From: Escherichia coli
Lineage (GTDB): Bacteria; Pseudomonadota; Gammaproteobacteria; Enterobacterales; Enterobacteriaceae
Length of the DNA stretch: 64,000 nucleotides
Assembly: GCF_003334335.1 (NCBI RefSeq)
Contig: NZ_QOWQ01000011.1
Strand: one strand, 5' to 3'
Positions 1 through 54,670 of the stretch are shown here, piece by piece. The position numbers and the translations under genes were made by a program. The notes below the pieces were generated by a model. It saw only the letters and a list, made by a program, of their open reading frames with translations, had not been told where the DNA came from and made no database searches. Positions within the stretch are counted from its first letter, which is position 1; each line of letters begins with the position of its first letter.

Positions 1-456
1 AGTACGGATTTGGGGACGAAAAACACATCGTCGTTTGATTACGGAACCAAATCCACGAATAACACCGGGGCGCATACCCATAGTATTAGCGGGACTGCAA
101 ATAGTGCCGGTGCGCACCAACACAAGAGTTCCGGTGCATTTGGTGGCACGAACACGAGCATTTTCCCTAATGGTTATACCGCGATTTCAAATCTAAGCGC
201 GGGGATTATGAGCACAACAAGCGGTAGTGGCCAGACTCGTAATGCAGGGAAGACATCATCAGATGGTGCTCATACCCACTCGCTGTCCGGCACTGCTGCA
301 AGCGCAGGCGCACATGCACATACTGTCGGTATTGGTGCTCATACGCACTCCGTTGCGATTGGCTCACACGGACACACCATCACCGTTAACGCTGCTGGTA
401 ACGCGGAAAACACCGTCAAAAACATCGCATTTAACTATATTGTGAGGCTTGCATAA
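1..456 (+). CDS. stf: Phage side tail fibre protein, C-terminal part (5' end outside window)
   Basis: Open frame from base 1 with no upstream stop. Gly/Ser/Thr-rich with repeated GAHTHS / GAHAH / GSHGH motifs, like the His-x-His motifs of T4 gp37 and lambda Stf distal fibres. Its stop overlaps the start of the next gene. Confidence 0.7.
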
Positions 457-1037
457 TGGCATTCAGAATGAGTGAACAACCACGGACCATAAAAATTTAT
501 AATCTGCTGGCCGGAACTAATGAATTTATTGGTGAAGGTGATGCATATATTCCGCCTCATACAGGTCTGCCAGCAAACAGTACCGATATTGCACCGCCAG
601 ATATTCCGGCTGGCTTCGTGGCTGTTTTCAACAGTGATGAGTCATCGTGGCATCTTGTTGAAGACCATCGGGGTAAAACAGTTTATGACGTGGCATCAGG
701 GGACGCGTTATTTATTTCTGAACTCGGCTCATTACCGGAAAATGTTACCTGGTTATCCCCGGAAGGGGAGTTTCAGAAGTGGAACGGCACAGCCTGGGTG
801 AAGGATACGGAAGCAGAAAAACTGTTCCGGATCCGGGAGGTGGAAGAAACAAAAAACAGCCTGATGCAGGTAGCCAGTGAGCATATAGCGCCGCTTCAGG
901 ATGCTGTGGATCTGGAAATCGCAACGGAGGAAGAAACCTTGTTGCTGGAAGCCTGGAAAAAGTATCGGGTATTGCTGAACCGTGTTGATACGTCAACTGC
1001 ACAGGATATTGAATGGCCAGTAGCACCTATAGGGTAA
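456..1037 (+). CDS. tfa: Phage tail fibre assembly protein
   Basis: 193 aa ORF starting at the ATG that overlaps the fibre gene stop (TAATG). The sequence resembles Tfa-family chaperones of lambdoid and P2-like phages. Confidence 0.75.
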
Positions 1038-1895
1038 ATTCGTAATGATTACCTAAATACGTTATTCTTTTGTTCAAAAAGTGATTTTGCTATAGATAGG
1101 GAGTATGTTCTTGGATTAAGAATAAAAATCGCCATGAAAGAGCTTCATGGCGAGTACATAAACGTACAAAATGTGATGAAAGTAGAGTGGCGTAAGCCAC
1201 TATATTAAGATGTGACAATAGCGAAGAAAAGTAAATAACATTTTATGGACGTTTAATTGTTAATTATAAAAACTAGAGTGCCCGATATTGTTTACCTTGC
1301 TTTAAAATAATGTACTCAAACCAAATTTTTGAGCTAAAAGCTCAAATAATATAAATGCAATAATAATGTTTAATAAGACAATTAGCTTGCTTTGTATTTT
1401 CATTTCGGAATACTGTTAAGTAACTTTGATGACCCTAACAATAGATCGGAATTTTCTTAGAGTCAATGGTCACTGTTTTTGCTTGCAAAGCAAATGTTTT
1501 GGTGGTTATAAGTTGTCTTAATATAGTCACGCATGCAACTTGTTCCATGCGGAGATTAAAGATTGGAATATAACGCTAAGATGGAATTAAATTACATTTG
1601 CAATAATCAATTTATTATTACTCAATAATTACCGATATTATTATTGTAAATTAATCATTAGAGTGCAAAAAGAAATGTAACGGCAAAATAAGAGGACGAT
1701 AGCTGAGAAAAAAGCGTGCTTTCCCAATCTGGGGCAAATCACGTCTGAATGACACCTGAAAACAGGTGGTAGCCTCAAGAAGGCTTGGAATATTCTTCTT
1801 TAATGTTATGTAATTCATTGATTTTTCGTGTACGATTTAAAGACATTTATTCCAAGAAAAATTTTTAACTCTTTGATTTTTCGACTCTGTATCAT

Positions 1896-1957
1896 CGGTC
1901 TCGAAAACCGGAGTAGGGGCAACTCTACCGGGGGTTCAAATCCCCCTCTCTCCGCCA
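1896..1957 (+). tRNA. 3' fragment (about 62 nt) of tRNA-Ser(CGA) (serU-like): anticodon stem, variable arm, T arm and acceptor 3' strand ending CCA. Not a complete tRNA.
   Basis: CGGTCTCGAAAACCGGAGTAGGGGCAACTCTACCGGGGGTTCAAATCCCCCTCTCTCCGCCA matches the 3' two-thirds of E. coli serU as I recall it. The 5' acceptor strand and D arm are missing; upstream sequence is unrelated AT-rich DNA. Confidence 0.7.
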
Positions 1958-2541
1958 CTTTATCAATGACTTATCTCCCGACTTCCCGCCTTGCTTTTCC
2001 TAAACAGAACAATCGTAGAATATTCTTGAAGGGTTAGATCGTCACTGTTTTCTGTTCGATACTGTGACATTCAGCACTTGATTCGCTATGGATCTGACAG
2101 GAAGGTTTTGAGCGAAAATTTGCAGTTATTCAGTCGTTTTCTTATCGGTCACCATTATTCTTTTAGACATTGATCCTACAAAGCTGCCGCAAAGTTGGTG
2201 GTGGGAACTGAAGTTGCGTAGAGAAGGGGTCAATACCCGGAGGCAAACATGGGCTGGCAAAAGTGTAGCGGTATTAGGCGCAGCTATTTAGCCTAGTTAT
2301 GTTTTATGAAAACTTGATATCATATAAGTGTCTTACTTATTGGCTGTAAATAAGTTTTTCCTAAGGAATTGTTTCTTGAGTATCATTTGTAACTGTAACG
2401 GAATTTATAATCCTTTGCTTTATTGTTACGGTATTTTTTATCACACCCTATTTTTTATGTGGTTTTTTATACTGAAGTTTGGCAAAGTGAACTTTATATG
2501 CATATACTTCATCCTGGTTTCAGTTAAGTTGGGTGGATGAT

Positions 2542-3285
2542 ATGGCAACTACATGTTCAGTTATATTGATTTTGGAGTCCTTTGATGTTTATTTCGGAAA
2601 AGAGAGTGTGTTTCTGGAGAGAGGTTCATCTGTACTTGTCGACTCTAGCTCTAGAGATTTTTTCCTGACATATCCTGAAAGAGTGATAGTGGCGGATTTT
2701 GGCGCTGAGTTTATTAGTCGCTATTTGAAAGCTAATAACTTAAGGGATATTTCTGATTGTAGGGAATATCCATCTTATTTAAAAATAAACTTTGCTGACT
2801 TCAGTTTAATTAAAGGATTAATTAGTTGGGCTAATCACTGTGCTGAATACATAGAAATTTTTGATGAGTCTATTGCTTTTACATGTCTCTCTGCATTTTC
2901 TTCTGAAAAACAATTTGGAGTATTTCTGTTTGAATGTTTGAAAAGCACAGGGGCTAAAGTTAAAACGATTATTCATACGGATTTATCTGCACCATGGCGT
3001 CTTAAGGATATATCATCAAGATTATATCTCAGCGAAAGTTTACTAAAGAGGAAATTGAAAGAAGAGGGGGTATCATTCAGTAAGATCATACTTGATGAGA
3101 GGATGCAAATGGCTGAATATTTACTCAGCACTCGTTGTTATCCTATTAGTAAAGTAGCTAAGGTCTGTGGTTATGCCAGTGTCTCATACTTTACTTATGT
3201 ATTTAGACGTTATTTTGGTGTTTCTCCAAGTCAATACTCTCAGAGCAGTTCAGAAAGTAAAATTCTTACTCACCAGGGAATCTGA
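2542..3285 (+). CDS. AraC/XylS-family transcriptional regulator, AppY/EnvY/Rns-like, low GC
   Basis: C-terminal helix-turn-helix region (ISKVAKVCGYASVSYFTYVFRRYFGVSPSQY) and overall similarity to prophage-borne AppY. ATG at 2542 preferred over the GTG at 2533 used by the ORF track. Confidence 0.75.
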   Translation: MATTCSVILILESFDVYFGKESVFLERGSSVLVDSSSRDFFLTYPERVIVADFGAEFISRYLKANNLRDISDCREYPSYLKINFADFSLIKGLISWANHCAEYIEIFDESIAFTCLSAFSSEKQFGVFLFECLKSTGAKVKTIIHTDLSAPWRLKDISSRLYLSESLLKRKLKEEGVSFSKIILDERMQMAEYLLSTRCYPISKVAKVCGYASVSYFTYVFRRYFGVSPSQYSQSSSESKILTHQGI

Positions 3286-3289
3286 TCAT

Positions 3290-3790
3290 TGTTCTTGCCC
3301 CCTTATTTCCAGACAGGGGGTGTATCTTAAGTTAACGTTACCCGCTGACGTCGATATTCTCGCGGAGAGCGATAACCCAACGCACTGTGCGGATGGTTTT
3401 CATTGTAATGTTCGATCGCCACTGCAAGATTATGCAATGCCGTTCTTACATTCGGTTTCGGCATGAACGCGATGTAGTCTTCCTTCATCGTTTTCACGAA
3501 CCTTTCTGCCATTCCATTACTCTGAGGACTGCTGATTGCCGTTGTGCAGGGCTCCAGATTCAACTCTCTGGCGAACTGCCATGTTTCATGCGCTCTATAC
3601 GCTGAACCGTTATCTGTCAGCCACTGGATGGACTGTTCCGGTACTTTATCGCCAAAGCGTTTTTCTATCGCTCCTAACATGACATCCTGCACTGTCGCTT
3701 TATCGTAACCTCCCGTGCTTGCGGCCCAGTCTATGGCTTCACGATCGCAACAGTCCAGGGCGAACGTAACACGCAGTTTTGAATCGCCAC
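3290..3790 (-). mobile_element. IS3-family (IS2-like) insertion sequence remnant: one terminal inverted repeat plus the 3' part of the transposase gene
   Basis: Terminus TTGCCCCCTTATTTCCAGACA at about 3291-3311 resembles the IS2 right inverted repeat. The adjacent minus-strand ORF encodes a DDE transposase C-terminus. The element is cut off near 3780-3790 by a second IS end. Confidence 0.55.
3327..3692 (-). pseudogene. Truncated IS3-family transposase OrfB (C-terminal about 120 aa only)
   Basis: Translation ends ...[20 protein letters not shown], the conserved C-terminal signature of IS3-family DDE transposases. The N-terminal catalytic region is absent. Confidence 0.6.
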
Positions 3791-4080
3791 GGGTTTAACA
3801 GACACCTCAGAGTCATTTAAGATGGCTTAAAGAGAGGTGCCCATGAGCGGTAAGCGTTATCCCGAAGAGTTTAAAACTGAAGCAGTCAAACAGGTTGTTG
3901 ATCGCGGTTATTCTGTTGCCAGCGTTGCAACACGTCTCGATATCACCACCCACAGCCTTTATGCCTGGATAAAGAAGTACGGTCCGGATTACTCCACTTT
4001 TTCATCAAGCCAATCCGCCCACCACTGCATCATTTCTCTGCGCTTATCGAGATACTGAGCGTGGTTGTAAATTCAGCTAA
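3781..4080 (+). mobile_element. Second IS3-family insertion sequence remnant: left end plus truncated orfA
   Basis: TGAATCGCCACGGGTTTAACAGACACC resembles IS3-family left ends (TGA...GTTTAAC.GACAC, as in IS600). It is followed by an OrfA-like helix-turn-helix ORF and ends abruptly before the tI/sib hairpin. Confidence 0.5.
3837..4058 (+). pseudogene. Truncated IS3-family transposase OrfA (helix-turn-helix domain intact, C-terminus degenerate)
   Basis: N-terminus MSGKRYPEEFKTEAVKQVVDRGYSVASVATRLDITTHSLYAWIKKYG is a typical OrfA helix-turn-helix. No leucine zipper, frameshift window or orfB follows. Confidence 0.6.
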
Positions 4081-4088
4081 CCCAGTGT

Positions 4089-4136
4089 GTTGACAAAAAA
4101 TTAGCGCAAGAAGACAAAAAAATCACCTTGCGCTAA
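4089..4136 (-). terminator. Lambda tI/sib-like hairpin adjacent to the att P arm
   Basis: 10-bp inverted repeat TTAGCGCAAG / CTTGCGCTAA with a 16-nt loop, followed on the minus strand by TTTTTTG. It is the reverse complement of the lambda sib/tI sequence as I recall it. Confidence 0.55.
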
Positions 4137-4138
4137 TG

Positions 4139-4300
4139 CTCTGTTACAGGTCACTAATACCATCTAAGTGGTTGATTCATAGTGACTGGATATGTTGTGT
4201 TTTGTAGCATTATGTAGTCTATTTTTTAGACTGAATAAATTATAAGTCGTTGATATTAATTGTTTTTACCGTTTCACATTCAACTTTTTTATACTAACTT
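4139..4300. other. attR: Prophage attR (lambda-type P arm, core CTTTTTTATACTAA at about 4284-4297, bacterial B' arm)
   Basis: TCTGTTACAGGTCACTAATACCATCTAAGT... closely matches the lambda P arm; it diverges toward the core. Core and downstream CTTGAGCGAAACGGGAAGG match the E. coli attB side. Confidence 0.75.
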
Positions 4301-4387
4301 GAGCGAAACGGGAAGGTAAAAAGACAAAAAGTTGTTTTTAATACCTTTAAGTGATACCAGATGGCATTGCGCCATCTGGCAGAGTGA

Positions 4388-4864
4388 TTAACTAAACATC
4401 GCAGTAATCGAGGCGCTTGCCAGAGAGTGGAAATGAACGTTAAACCCGACCATCGCGCCGCTGGCACCTTCATCGACATCAATACGTTCTATATCCAGCG
4501 CGTGAACGGTAAAAATGTAGCGATGAGTTTCGCCTTTCGGCGGTGCTGCGCCATCGTACCCGGTTTTACCAAAGTCGGTACGCGTCTGCAAAACGCCGTC
4601 TGGCATTGCTACCAGACCAGAGCCAAACCCTTGCGGTAATACGCGGGTATCAGCGGGTAAGTTAACAACTACCCAGTGCCACCAGCCGGAGCCGGTTGGC
4701 GCATCCGGGTCGTAGCAGGTGACAACAAAACTTTTCGTTCCCGCAGGAACATCATCCCACGCCAGATGCGGTGAAATATTATCGCCATCGTAACCCATGC
4801 CGTTAAAGACATGACGATGCGGCAATTTATCGCCATCGCGCAGATCGTTACTGATGAGTTTCAT
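4388..4864 (-). CDS. ybhB: PEBP-family protein YbhB
   Basis: 158 aa ORF recognised as K-12 YbhB; position next to bioA. Confidence 0.9.
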   Translation of the reverse strand: MKLISNDLRDGDKLPHRHVFNGMGYDGDNISPHLAWDDVPAGTKSFVVTCYDPDAPTGSGWWHWVVVNLPADTRVLPQGFGSGLVAMPDGVLQTRTDFGKTGYDGAAPPKGETHRYIFTVHALDIERIDVDEGASGAMVGFNVHFHSLASASITAMFS

Positions 4865-4922
4865 GAACCCTCCTTTCTTGTTTGCAGAAAGTGTAGCCAG
4901 AAACCCTCACGCGGACTTCTCG

Positions 4923-7339: not shown

Positions 7340-8490
7340 GCTGGCAGGAGAAAATCAACGCGGCGCTCGATGCGCGGCGTGCTGCCGATGCCCTGCGTCG
7401 CCGTTATCCGGTGGCGCAAGGAGCCGGACGCTGGCTGGTGGCGGATGATCGCCAGTATCTGAACTTTTCCAGTAACGATTATTTAGGTTTAAGCCATCAT
7501 CCGCAAATTATCCGTGCCTGGCAGCAGGGGGCGGAGCAATTTGGCATCGGTAGCGGCGGCTCCGGTCACGTCAGCGGTTATAGCGTGGTGCATCAGGCAC
7601 TGGAAGAAGAGCTGGCCGAGTGGCTTGGCTATTCGCGGGCACTGCTGTTTATCTCTGGTTTCGCCGCTAATCAGGCAGTTATTGCCGCGATGATGGCGAA
7701 AGAGGACCGTATTGCTGCCGACCGGCTTAGCCATGCCTCATTGCTGGAAGCTGCCAGTTTAAGCCCGTCGCAGCTTCGCCGTTTTGCTCATAACGATGTC
7801 ACTCATCTGGCGCGATTGCTTGCTTCCCCCTGTCCGGGGCAGCAAATGGTGGTGACAGAAGGCGTGTTCAGCATGGACGGCGATAGTGCGCCACTGGCGG
7901 AAATCCAGCAGGTAACGCAACAGCACAATGGCTGGTTGATGGTCGATGATGCCCACGGCACGGGCGTTATCGGGGAGCAGGGGCGCGGCAGCTGCTGGCT
8001 GCAAAAGGTAAAACCAGAATTGCTGGTAGTGACTTTTGGCAAAGGATTTGGCGTCAGCGGGGCAGCGGTGCTTTGCTCCAGTACGGTGGCGGATTATCTG
8101 CTGCAATTCGCCCGCCACCTTATCTACAGCACCAGTATGCCGCCCGCTCAGGCGCAGGCATTACGTGCGTCGCTGGCGGTCATTCGCAGTGATGAGGGTG
8201 ATGCACGGCGCGAAAAACTGGCGGCACTCATTACGCGTTTTCGTGCCGGAGTACAGGATTTGCCGTTTACGCTTGCTGATTCATGCAGCGCCATCCAGCC
8301 ATTGATTGTCGGTGATAACAGCCGTGCGTTACAACTGGCAGAAAAACTGCGCCAGCAAGGCTGCTGGGTCACGGCGATTCGCCCGCCAACCGTACCCGCT
8401 GGTACTGCGCGACTGCGCTTAACGCTAACCGCTGCGCATGAAATGCAGGATATCGACCGTCTGCTGGAGGTGCTGCATGGCAACGGTTAA
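7336..8490 (+). CDS. bioF: 8-amino-7-oxononanoate synthase
   Basis: 384 aa; start overlaps the bioB stop (ATGA). Confidence 0.95.
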
Positions 8491-9232
8491 TAAACAAGCC
8501 ATTGCAGCGGCATTTGGTCGGGCAGCCGCACACTATGAGCAACATGCAGATCTACAGCGCCAGAGTGCTGACGCCTTACTGGCAATGCTTCCACAGCGTA
8601 AATACACCCACGTACTGGACGCGGGTTGTGGACCTGGCTGGATGAGCCGCCACTGGCGGGAACGTCACGCGCAGGTGACGGCCTTAGATCTCTCGCCGCC
8701 AATGCTTGTTCAGGCACGCCAGAAGGATGCCGCAGACCATTATCTGGCGGGAGATATCGAATCCCTGCCGTTAGCGACTGCGACGTTCGATCTTGCATGG
8801 AGCAATCTCGCAGTGCAGTGGTGCGGTAATTTATCCACGGCACTCCGCGAGCTGTATCGGGTGGTGCGCCCCAAAGGCGTGGTCGCGTTTACCACGCTGG
8901 TGCAGGGATCGTTACCCGAACTGCATCAGGCGTGGCAGGCGGTGGACGAGCGTCCGCATGCTAATCGCTTTTTACCGCCAGATGAAATCGAACAGTCGCT
9001 GAACGGCGTGCATTATCAACATCATATTCAGCCCATCACGCTGTGGTTTGATGATGCGCTCAGTGCCATGCGTTCGCTGAAAGGCATCGGTGCCACGCAT
9101 CTTCATGAAGGGCGCGACCCGCGAATATTAACGCGTTCGCAGTTGCAGCGATTGCAACTGGCCTGGCCGCAACAGCAGGGGCGATATCCTCTGACGTATC
9201 ATCTTTTTTTGGGAGTGATTGCTCGTGAGTAA
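8477..9232 (+). CDS. bioC: Malonyl-ACP O-methyltransferase
   Basis: Start set at [17 protein letters not shown] (ATG 8477), overlapping the bioF 3' end. SAM methyltransferase motif DAGCGPG. Confidence 0.92.
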
Positions 9233-12540: not shown

Positions 12541-12637
12541 CCTGATGCGCTACGCTTATCAGGCCTACATTTTCTCCGCAATATATTGAATTTGCGCGGT
12601 TTGTAGGCCGGATAAGGCGTTCACGCCGCATCCGGCA
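12541..12637. repeat. Composite REP unit (two opposed REP palindromes around a shared spacer)
   Basis: CCTGATGCGCTACGCTTATCAGGCCTAC ... CAATATATTGAATTTGC ... GTAGGCCGGATAAGGCGTTCACGCCGCATCCGGCA. Confidence 0.85.
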
Positions 12638-13823: not shown

Positions 13824-13883
13824 AAAGTGTGGATGGTAAAAATCTCATTTACACGCTAGTATCGGCATAACCACTAAACACTC

Positions 13884-13998
13884 TAGCCTCTGCACCTGGG
13901 TCAACTGATACGGTGCTTTGGCCGTGACAATGCTCGTAAAGATTGCCACCAGGGCGAAGGAAGAAATGACTTCGCCTCCCGTATCTGGAAAGGTGTAC
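13884..13998 (+). ncRNA. Moco (molybdenum cofactor) riboswitch-like leader of moaA; boundaries approximate
   Basis: A conserved Moco RNA motif is known directly upstream of moaA in E. coli. Placed by position; I did not check the fold. Confidence 0.5.
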
Positions 13999-14988
13999 AT
14001 GGCTTCACAACTGACTGATGCATTTGCGCGTAAGTTTTACTACTTGCGCCTGTCGATTACCGATGTGTGTAACTTTCGTTGCACCTACTGCCTGCCGGAT
14101 GGCTACAAACCGAGCGGCGTCACCAATAAAGGCTTTCTTACCGTCGATGAAATTCGCCGGGTTACGCGCGCCTTCGCCAGTCTGGGCACCGAAAAAGTGC
14201 GCCTGACAGGAGGAGAGCCGTCTTTACGCCGCGACTTTACCGATATCATCGCCGCTGTGCGGGAAAACGACGCTATCCGCCAGATTGCGGTCACAACCAA
14301 TGGTTACCGTCTGGAACGCGATGTGGCGAGCTGGCGCGATGCGGGACTTACTGGCATTAACGTCAGTGTCGACAGTCTGGACGCCCGCCAGTTTCACGCT
14401 ATTACCGGGCAGGATAAATTCAACCAGGTCATGGCAGGGATTGATGCTGCATTTGAGGCCGGTTTTGAGAAGGTCAAAGTCAATACCGTGCTGATGCGTG
14501 ATGTTAATCATCACCAGCTCGACACCTTTCTGAACTGGATCCAGCATCGCCCTATCCAGCTGCGTTTCATCGAACTGATGGAAACGGGCGAGGGCAGCGA
14601 GCTCTTCCGTAAGCATCACATCTCTGGTCAGGTTCTGCGTGACGAGCTACTGCGTCGCGGCTGGATCCACCAATTACGTCAACGCAGCGACGGTCCCGCG
14701 CAAGTCTTTTGCCATCCAGATTACGCCGGAGAGATTGGCCTTATCATGCCGTATGAAAAAGACTTCTGCGCCACTTGCAACCGCCTGCGCGTTTCCTCCA
14801 TTGGTAAACTCCATCTCTGCCTGTTTGGTGAAGGCGGCGTTAACCTGCGCGATCTGCTGGAAGACGATACCCAGCAACAGGCGCTGGAAGCGCGTATTTC
14901 AGCGGCGCTGCGGGAGAAGAAACAGACCCATTTCCTGCATCAAAACAACACCGGTATTACGCAAAACTTATCGTACATTGGCGGCTAA
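13999..14988 (+). CDS. moaA: GTP 3',8-cyclase (radical SAM)
   Basis: Start set at [31 protein letters not shown] (329 aa). Confidence 0.95.
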
Positions 14989-18496: not shown

Positions 18497-19453
18497 TCAC
18501 ATCGCCGCTTCATTTTTCGCTCGTAGCTTTTTCGCCTGGCTTTCCAGCAACAGGTAACAGATCAGCGCCAGCAGCAGTGGGATAAAGTAATACAGCACAC
18601 GGTAAGCGAGCAGGGCGGCGATAATTGTGCCTTTGGTGATATGCTCCCCAGCCAGTAGCGCGATAAACACCGCTTCCAGCACACCAATTCCCGCCGGAAT
18701 ATGCACGATGACGCCTGCAATACTACTAACCAGCAACACGCCCAGTACAAAGAAATAGTTAACGCTTTGACCAAGTAACAGCCAGATAATCGCCCCCATT
18801 ACCATCCAGTTAACGCTGGAAATCAGCATCTGGGCGAGGGCGAATTTCCATGAAGGCAGTACCAGCTTTTGCCCTTTAATGGTCATATGGCGGTGCTTCG
18901 CGAAAGCGCAAAACCACAAATAAACCGCGATAATCATCAGTAAGCCAATGCCGAGAATACGCAGCGTAGTTTGATCGACATACCAGTGATCCGGCAACTC
19001 CACCACGCCTGCGGTAAAGATAATCCCCGCCAGTAAAATATAGCCCAGCCAGTTGGTGGTGATACTGAGCGAGAAAATCCGCGTAATAGTGCTACCGGGC
19101 AACCCCAGACGAGAGTACAAACGATAGCGCATACCAATGCCGCCGACCCAGGTACTGAGTGTCAGGTTGAAGGCGTAGCAGATAAACGACACCAGCATCA
19201 CCTGGCGCTTCGCCAGTTTGTGACCGCAGTAAAAGCGGGCGAGCAGGTCATAGCAGCCGTAAATCAGATAACTGACGACCACCAGCCCGACCGCACTGAG
19301 CAGCGCAACGCGATTGTAGTCACGGATGACCTTCCAGACCTCTTCCCAGTCCACCTTTTTGGCGTAGACCACCAGCAACACAATCACCGCGATAAAAAAC
19401 AGCCAGGTGAGGATCTTCTTTGCTAAGCGCCAGCGCGGGTGTGATTTACTCAT
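18497..19453 (-). CDS. ybhN: Inner membrane protein with lysylphosphatidylglycerol synthase-like transmembrane region
   Basis: 318 aa; its start overlaps the clsB stop. Confidence 0.88.
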   Translation of the reverse strand: MSKSHPRWRLAKKILTWLFFIAVIVLLVVYAKKVDWEEVWKVIRDYNRVALLSAVGLVVVSYLIYGCYDLLARFYCGHKLAKRQVMLVSFICYAFNLTLSTWVGGIGMRYRLYSRLGLPGSTITRIFSLSITTNWLGYILLAGIIFTAGVVELPDHWYVDQTTLRILGIGLLMIIAVYLWFCAFAKHRHMTIKGQKLVLPSWKFALAQMLISSVNWMVMGAIIWLLLGQSVNYFFVLGVLLVSSIAGVIVHIPAGIGVLEAVFIALLAGEHITKGTIIAALLAYRVLYYFIPLLLALICYLLLESQAKKLRAKNEAAM

Positions 19454-27598: not shown

Positions 27599-27826
27599 CG
27601 CACAGTCCATTCTTAATCAAATGATTGATTAAGATTATGACTCCATAGGGGAGTTGTCCAGTATGGCTAAGAATTTTAGCAACGCCAGTCACAGGGATAA
27701 TTTATGCGCTGCGTCACAAAAACTGCTACACTCCGCTCCCTCATGACATTGTGGTTTTTGTCATTTTCCTTTTCAGTATCTCCCTGAAAACTACACCGGT
27801 AACGGTCGGGGCGGTTCGGAGTAGTT

Positions 27827-29244: not shown

Positions 29245-29341
<97 letters not shown>

Positions 29342-29905: not shown

Positions 29906-29990
29906 TAAACCGCATTATGTTGGTGGTTATTGCGAGCCGCTTTCCAGAAACAGAAAAACCATTACCCCTGAAAACCGAAAAATGCCACAA

Positions 29991-34494: not shown

Positions 34495-34617
34495 CTGGAC
34501 GTAGCGTAAACGCCTGATCCGTCCAACGGTTCGGATTTTGTAGGCCTGATAAGACGCGGTAGCGTCGCATCAGGCATCTGTTGCCGGATGCGGCGTAAAC
34601 GCCTTATCCGTCCTACG
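34495..34617. repeat. REP cluster between ybiC and ybiJ
   Basis: Several REP palindromes (GTAGGCCTGATAAGACGCGGTAGCGTCGCATCAGGC, CCGGATGCGGCGTAAACGCCTTATCCG). Confidence 0.8.
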
Positions 34618-54571: not shown

Positions 54572-54670
54572 CCTGATGCGCTACGCTTATCAGGCCTACG
54601 CAGTACCTGCAATATATTGAATCTGCAGGACTTTGTAGGCCGGATAAGGCGTTAACGCCGCATCAGGCAT
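54572..54670. repeat. Composite REP unit, third copy in the same orientation as 12541-12637
   Basis: Same architecture and spacer (CAATATATTGAATCTGC). Confidence 0.85.

Follow-up and report, generated by a model that had tools for sequence, protein, structure and literature searches.

In phage lambda, the arm-type and core-type binding sites of integrase (Int) and the binding sites of IHF follow consensuses that are well established in the study of site-specific recombination, the Xis site X2 overlaps a Fis site, and the sib/tI element is both the terminator of int and the site of RNase III retroregulation. Among natural relatives of lambda, mEp332 is a lambdoid phage that forms plaques, has lambda immunity and is maintained as a prophage of MG1655 (PMC3442831). 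According to the genome paper of E. coli W, the interval between ybhC and ybhB houses the lambda-type prophage elements lambda*B (E. coli B) and lambda*Cr (Crooks) (PMC3032704). On the side of phage cargo, the prophage-encoded AraC-like regulators PatE, PsrA/B and AppY control acid resistance (PMC10877973).

Here we analyse a stretch of 64,000 nucleotides of Escherichia coli DNA (called the window below, with positions counted from its first letter), which carries such a prophage end next to ybhB. We are nearly certain (probability about 0.95) that window 4095-4301 is the attR junction, in the order sib/tI, P arm, core and B', of a lambdoid prophage lying between ybhC and ybhB, that it was set there by an integrase of lambda specificity, and that the phage is related to PhiR70_1 and mEp332. 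This attR is an ordinary and already known type of feature, textbook biology at a textbook locus, and it has no mechanistic novelty.

The attR junction and its protein-binding sites

A preliminary description of this DNA had placed a lambda-type attR directly upstream of ybhB and had suggested an alignment with lambda attP and with the K-12 ybhC-ybhB intergenic region. The alignment gives E = 1e-62 against lambda (window 4085-4301 with J02459 27528-27742; BLAST, phage collection) and identity with K-12 from 4284 on, and the same kind of search gives E = 5e-118 for PhiR70_1. For the protein-binding sites, the region was scanned with the arm-type consensus C/AAGTCACTAT, the core-type consensus CAACTTNNT and the IHF consensus WATCAANNNNTTR, as well as with a Xis search pattern derived from lambda X1 and X2; the invariant columns below refer to six aligned lambda-type att regions, namely those of the window, PhiR70_1, ev099, 434, HK97 and lambda. 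All elements of the claimed attR are found, as follows.

4095..4137, minus strand: sib/tI hairpin, with arms at 4100-4110 and 4127-4137, then U6 on the minus (int-sense) strand
4148..4157, plus strand: arm-type Int site P1 (AGGTCACTAA), identical to lambda and within the J02459 feature 'int 1'; 10 of 10 columns invariant
4165..4177, minus strand: IHF site H1 (AATCAACCACTTA), fitting WATCAANNNNTTR and homologous to lambda H1, with one change
4179..4188, minus strand: arm-type Int site P2 (CAGTCACTAT), exact to the consensus and homologous to lambda 'int 2'; 10 of 10 columns invariant
4191..4203, plus strand: Xis site X1 (TATGTTGTGTTTT), identical to lambda; 13 of 13 columns invariant
4211..4225, plus strand: Xis site X2 (TATGTAGTCTATTTT), one change from lambda, G to A
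4243..4255, minus strand: IHF site H2 (TATCAACGACTTA), fitting WATCAANNNNTTR, in the diverged part of the P arm; lambda H2 is TATCAATATATTA
4281..4289, plus strand: core-type Int site C (CAACTTTTT; lambda CAGCTTTTT), an exact fit to CAACTTNNT, with the same variant in PhiR70_1
4283..4297, plus strand: 15-bp common core, 14 of 15 identical in the alignment to lambda misc_recomb 27724-27738 and K-12 attB
4293..4301, minus strand: core-type Int site B' (CAAGTTAGT), identical to K-12 attB
4298..4387, no strand: bacterial B' arm and intergenic region downstream of ybhB, 100% identical to MG1655
4388..4864, minus strand: ybhB, the host gene flanking attR (from the list of open reading frames; WP_000767389.1, kinase inhibitor)

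On the whole, the elements follow one another (sib/tI, P arm, core, B', ybhB, bioA) as in a lambda-type attR (POB'), and everything testable by which such a junction is defined (the sites, the core, the flank and, in relatives, the partner attL) was found. P1 and P2 are oppositely oriented, and X1 and X2 are direct repeats between P2 and H2. In the annotation of J02459, 'int 1' and 'int 2' fall on P1 and P2, 'int 3' on the core sites and misc_recomb on the core. Over the full 64 kb of the window the IHF consensus has just 10 matches, H1 and H2 among them. Compared with the lambda attP/attR region (J02459 27480-27760), the order and the spacing of the elements are the same and the sib/tI stem, P1, P2, X1 and the TTTATAC overlap are identical; the differences lie in the sib loop (two extra A), in the X1-X2 spacer, in single changes of H1 and X2, in the 52 bp around H2 (66.7% identity), and in the C site, which has CAAC where lambda has CAGC.

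The core at 4283-4297 reads ACTTTTTTATACTAA, where lambda and attB both have GCTTTTTTATACTAA (over 4281-4297, CAACTTTTTTATACTAA in the window and CAGCTTTTTTATACTAA in lambda). Thus the 15-bp core of the preliminary description is present, but its match is 14 of 15 and not 15 of 15. The mismatch, where the window has A and lambda and attB have G, is at the first base of the core, on the side derived from the phage; the overlap TTTATAC begins five bases further right and lies at 4288-4294 between the core-type sites C and B'. Because the C site has CAAC and not CAGC, the core common to the window and attB is 14 bp; the C site of the window is closer to the consensus than that of lambda. We also considered the G-to-A difference at the first core base as a post-integration mutation, and rejected this since PhiR70_1 has the same base. 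From 4284 on, the window is base for base identical to K-12 MG1655 through attB and the intergenic region into ybhB, over the stretch compared, and the bacterial B' arm is thus just as it had been read.

The P arm, at 4138-4282, is of the lambda type, and had been described as close to lambda distally and diverging toward the core. This is correct, because in the alignment 129 of 138 positions (93.5%) are identical to lambda over 4092-4228, while the proximal part, 4229-4280, has 36 of 54 (66.7%). The H2 site within this proximal part has four changes with respect to lambda, three at N positions of the consensus and one at the first base of TTR, and retains the ATCAA block. Across the six aligned att regions, 77 of 86 columns inside sites are invariant, versus 40 of 68 outside (Fisher p = 1.8e-5). 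Since site columns are more often invariant, the coreward divergence is a divergence of spacers around a retained H2, and not decay. At several positions of the P arm it is lambda that stands apart from the other lambda-type att regions of this comparison.

The sib region begins at 4092 (TGACAAAAAATTAGCGCAAGAAGAC…), and the hairpin expected before the P arm folds with a GC-rich stem of about 12 bp at -25.4 kcal/mol (z = -4.4; none of 200 shuffles folds as well), is lambda sib/tI but for the two extra loop bases mentioned above, and has 36 of 38 invariant columns among the six att regions. The homologous stretch is annotated as sib and terminator in HK97 and 434. A scan of 3300-4900 for consensus terminators missed tI, because the apical loop is longer than the 8-base limit of the scan; this is a limitation of the tool, and the fold is clear. 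None of the six hits of an Rfam scan of the whole window falls within the att region. Given the identity with lambda, we infer that RNase III would cleave the extended stem of read-through transcripts and that pI transcripts would terminate at this sib/tI. As in lambda, the element would act on int transcripts in the attP configuration only, and would be uncoupled from int in the prophage.

Beyond ybhB follow bioA and bioBFCD, and everything further right in the window (bio-uvrB-moa-ybh…moeAB) belongs to the ordinary core chromosome. Rfam further reports here a Moco riboswitch upstream of moaA at 13867-14011 on the plus strand, three matches to ES036/CssrF at 12561-12602, 29265-29307 and 54592-54634 on the minus strand, and one to naRNA4 at 34543-34613 on the minus strand; all of these are ordinary RNA features of the chromosome, and the ES036/CssrF and naRNA4 matches are presumably REP-type repeats.

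Phage genes and cargo left of attR

The window was said to start inside a lambda-like prophage, and indeed window 1-4283 is phage DNA with the end of stf, tfa, the gene of an AraC-family regulator and IS debris. The genes for a tail-fibre C-terminus and a tail fibre assembly protein are located upstream of attR. The features are as follows.

1..456, plus strand: 3' end of stf, side tail fibre, the window starting inside the gene; PHROG 295 at the C-terminal end of the profile, E 2.5e-57
456..1037, plus strand: tfa, tail fibre assembly; PHROG 105, E 9.9e-99; WP_000885613.1
2542..3285, plus strand: AraC-family regulator, a b-region cargo gene; WP_000246057.1; GC 33-36%
3327..3779, minus strand: truncated IS2 transposase (orfB) fragment; NCBIfam IS2 TnpB, E 3.8e-70, profile positions 143-289 of 301; annotated as a pseudogene
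3843..3989, plus strand: truncated IS3-family orfA fragment, with NCBIfam and PHROG transposase matches; annotated as a pseudogene
3989-4072, minus strand: short fragment of 27 codons, weakly similar (E 6e-6) to the C-terminus of an integrase

In the genomes RM10410 and PEC1009, stf is annotated as phage tail protein. Within the tfa coding sequence, Rfam reports a full-length match to IS009 (RF02111) at 799-997 on the plus strand with 218 bits; this 'RNA family' is apparently a segment of prophage tfa. Between tfa and the AraC-family gene there is an AT-rich stretch of about 1.5 kb (1038-2541, 28-43% GC), whose small open reading frames at 1651-1818, 1828-2037 and 2328-2540 have no PHROG match. 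The reference genomes have no gene annotated in the corresponding stretch, and the record of PhiR70_1 annotates in its counterpart one hypothetical protein of 37 codons. We treat this stretch as non-coding or decayed; it could represent the remains of cargo or serve in regulation.

The best NCBIfam matches of the AraC-family regulator are YdeO (2e-43) and GadX (1.9e-31), both under the curated cut-offs, and it is assigned to PHROG 1450, 'unknown function'. The gene is also present in phages PhiR70_1 and ev099. As a prophage-borne AraC-like protein it recalls PatE, PsrA/B and AppY, a likeness of family and of location. To its right, directly upstream of sib, the IS2 orfB, IS3-family orfA and integrase-like fragments form nested mobile-element debris, and this IS debris is found in PhiR70_1 and ev099 too. 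In addition, lambda*B of REL606 has a pseudogene of equal length annotated at the matching place beside sib, the two being likened by length and position.

Related phages and cryptic remnants

The two phages nearest to the window element are PhiR70_1 (PV340577), 99.2% identical over window 4060-4301 and sharing the CAAC core variant, and mEp332 (PV340541), 98.2% identical over window 4060-4285. Their right ends are practically that of the window, with the AraC regulator, IS2 debris, sib and P arm. Because mEp332 shares the P arm at this level, the P-arm variant of the window works in a live phage. The attP regions of 434, HK97 and ev099 have lambda core specificity and share with the window the non-lambda bases of the distal arm (GGATATG, GTAGCATT; 94.8-97.0% identity), but over the proximal 55 bp they are 74.5-76.4% identical to the window, and their core has CAGC.

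Among 5426 complete E. coli genomes, 117 cover at least 80% of window 1-4400, many of them with 100% identity. The closest over 25 kb are PEC1009 and EC416 (99.9%), and window 1-4400 is 100% identical in RM10410 and PEC1009, the two genomes sharing this right end whose prophage content was inspected. In both, an attL (B-O-P') adjoins ybhC, 18,910 bp (RM10410) or 22,745 bp (PEC1009) left of attR, and in its P' arm 120 of 120 positions agree with lambda. The Int of these relatives is identical to lambda Int at 351 of 356 residues (99%) and Xis at 71 of 72; Arg212, Lys235, His308, Arg311, His333 and Tyr342, which we take to be the catalytic residues of lambda Int, are all unchanged. This is in accordance with the view that an integrase of lambda specificity placed the phage at the gal-bio site.

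The prophage in RM10410 and PEC1009 is a defective remnant of 18.9-22.7 kb. Its left part has int, xis and the early-left genes up to exo or bet', from where a deletion of the early region joins straight to ren', so that cIII-N-cI-cro-cII-O-P is missing. To the right of ren' the annotation gives a DLP12-like nin region, followed by Q, a porin gene, lysis genes, bor and nohD; a second deletion removes the heads and tails, and after it come stf, tfa and the same right end as in the window. The genes for immunity (cI/cro), replication (O/P), head and tail shaft are therefore absent from both prophages. The preliminary description had pointed upstream to capsid, lysis and immunity genes and to attL with int: in these two genomes attL, int and xis are there, as are the lysis genes, but capsid and immunity genes are not, nor are they to be expected upstream, because the prophage of the relatives is a defective remnant. 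That the phage is lambda-like and not lambda itself is borne out by the different cargo, the overall P-arm identity of about 86% and a DLP12-like annotation of the late region.

The deletion junctions differ between the two genomes. In the early region the junction is exo|ren' in RM10410 versus bet'|ren' in PEC1009, and for the heads and tails it is terminase'/'stf in RM10410 and nohD/lom' in PEC1009; the junctions are at 8704-8713 and 19254-19258 of the RM10410 locus (L001) and at 8078-8088 and 17569 of the PEC1009 locus (L009). The RM10410 terminase'/'stf junction is found in 12 genomes only. One and the same resident prophage is being worn down independently in separate lineages. PhiR70_1 and mEp332 match the remnant in gene order (int-xis, the DLP12-like nin/Q/porin/lysis block, stf), but they are full-length phages of 46-49 kb with the cI, cro, O, P, head and tail genes that are deleted in the closest relatives of the window. 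The record of PhiR70_1, 48.8 kb in prophage order, ends …CAACTTTTTTATACTAACTTG. Judged from the two relatives with identical right ends, the prophage of the source genome would be defective as well, and its attL, int and xis are predicted from genomes with identical right ends.

Cryptic remnants at the same insertion site include lambda*B, lambda*Cr and the O157:H7 prophage beside ybhB, all having, as the window element would, lambda-type int/xis on the ybhC side and a lambda-type attR on the ybhB side. The O157:H7 attR is 93.4% identical to that of the window, and the element is one that we take to be CP-933K. We also asked if the window element is lambda*B of E. coli B, and rejected it. The REL606 remnant, of about 12 kb, has the same site and int/xis, but its cargo differs (acyltransferases), its proximal P arm is lambda-identical and its core has CAGC; because of these differences in cargo, proximal P arm and core, it is a separate remnant of the same type. 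The B' core-type site of the REL606 attR has a C-to-T change, ACTAATTTGAG instead of ACTAACTTGAG (locus L008, about 29960-29990), and an exact-pattern search for this attR failed because its B' side reads ACTAATTTGAG.

Alternative explanations

The att region is AT-rich, with 33% GC, and in intergenic DNA of such composition a resemblance to lambda att may be thought to come from chance or low complexity. However, the E values of 1e-62 to lambda and 5e-118 to PhiR70_1, the correct spacing of every protein-binding site and the exact continuation into K-12 attB make the probability of this practically negligible. Another reading is that the attR is genuine but a decayed, recombination-dead fossil, inactivated after integration by the divergence of the proximal P arm and by the G-to-A change in the C site. 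It would fit with the identity of only 66.7% to lambda over the proximal 52 bp, with the core match of 14 of 15, and with a prophage evidently resident for long enough to undergo several deletions. But the same proximal sequence, CAAC included, is found in PhiR70_1 and a nearly identical one in mEp332, a plaque-forming and lysogenising phage, so that the proximal differences are variation among phage lineages and not post-integration decay; moreover, the IHF core of H2 is kept, the C-site variant is exact to CAACTTNNT, and 434, HK97 and ev099 also depart from lambda in the proximal region. We therefore hold such a loss of function to be very improbable.

A third reading concerns not the attR, which would be the same, but the biological state of the prophage, which could be a full-length and inducible lambdoid phage like PhiR70_1. 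The window starts within stf and shows nothing further upstream; PhiR70_1, a relative of 48.8 kb, has the same right end; the upstream content was seen in only two of the 117 genomes sharing this right end; and the deletion junction of RM10410 is common to only 12 genomes. All this leaves some room for a complete phage, but PEC1009, among the closest genomes with 99.9% identity over 25 kb, and RM10410 both carry remnants without the cI, cro, O, P, head and tail genes, and an intact prophage is accordingly unlikely. Nothing observed speaks against a lambda-type attR at the end of a lambdoid prophage, which remains the reading we prefer for the junction.

Occurrence at attλ in E. coli genomes

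A lambda-type P arm adjoining ybhB is detected in 1941 of the 5426 complete E. coli genomes, when at least 80% of a 316-bp query (window 4085-4400) is required to be covered; the proportion of 36% is inflated, as the collection is biased towards sequenced pathogens. The remaining genomes match the bacterial part 4284-4400 only. Genomes with an occupied attλ include strains of O157:H7 and O103:H2, with 93-94% identity.

Implications for excision and for the lambda family

By analogy with lambda, this attR would be one of two substrates of excision, with attL as its partner. Xis would occupy X1 and X2, IHF would occupy H2, and Int would bridge P2 to the core sites C and B'; the bending of the P arm would then pair attR with attL, and strand exchange would take place within the TTTATAC overlap. 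The source phage would have had a P' arm, int and xis almost identical to lambda and a naturally variant P arm, which resembles lambda between sib and X2 and has diverged around H2. After integration, as the closest sequenced genomes suggest, immunity, replication, head and tail-shaft genes would have been lost, giving a cryptic remnant of 19-23 kb. The attR is predicted to be able to recombine with attL once Int, Xis and IHF are available, as nearly the same P arm serves the lysogenising mEp332. In a remnant without cI, N, cII and presumably pL, int and xis are probably poorly expressed and spontaneous excision is probably rare; therefore, excision would need Int and Xis in trans, for example from a superinfecting phage of the lambda type. 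One may further speculate that the remnant is kept since its YdeO/GadX-like AraC-family cargo rewires the acid-resistance or stress regulons of the host, as is reported for PatE, PsrA/B and AppY, and that the hypervariable flank of H2 and the CAAC C site, with its perfect fit to the consensus, tune the efficiency of integration and excision, but this we consider a tentative idea and rather doubtful.

As for what the junction means, the right boundary of the prophage is fixed at window 4283-4297, which is of value chiefly for annotation, and it accounts for the foreign, lower-GC character of the first 4.3 kb of the window. The comparison of natural att sites of lambda specificity shows that they vary mostly between the protein-binding sites, and the element itself is recognised as one of the common cryptic remnants of the lambda family at attλ.
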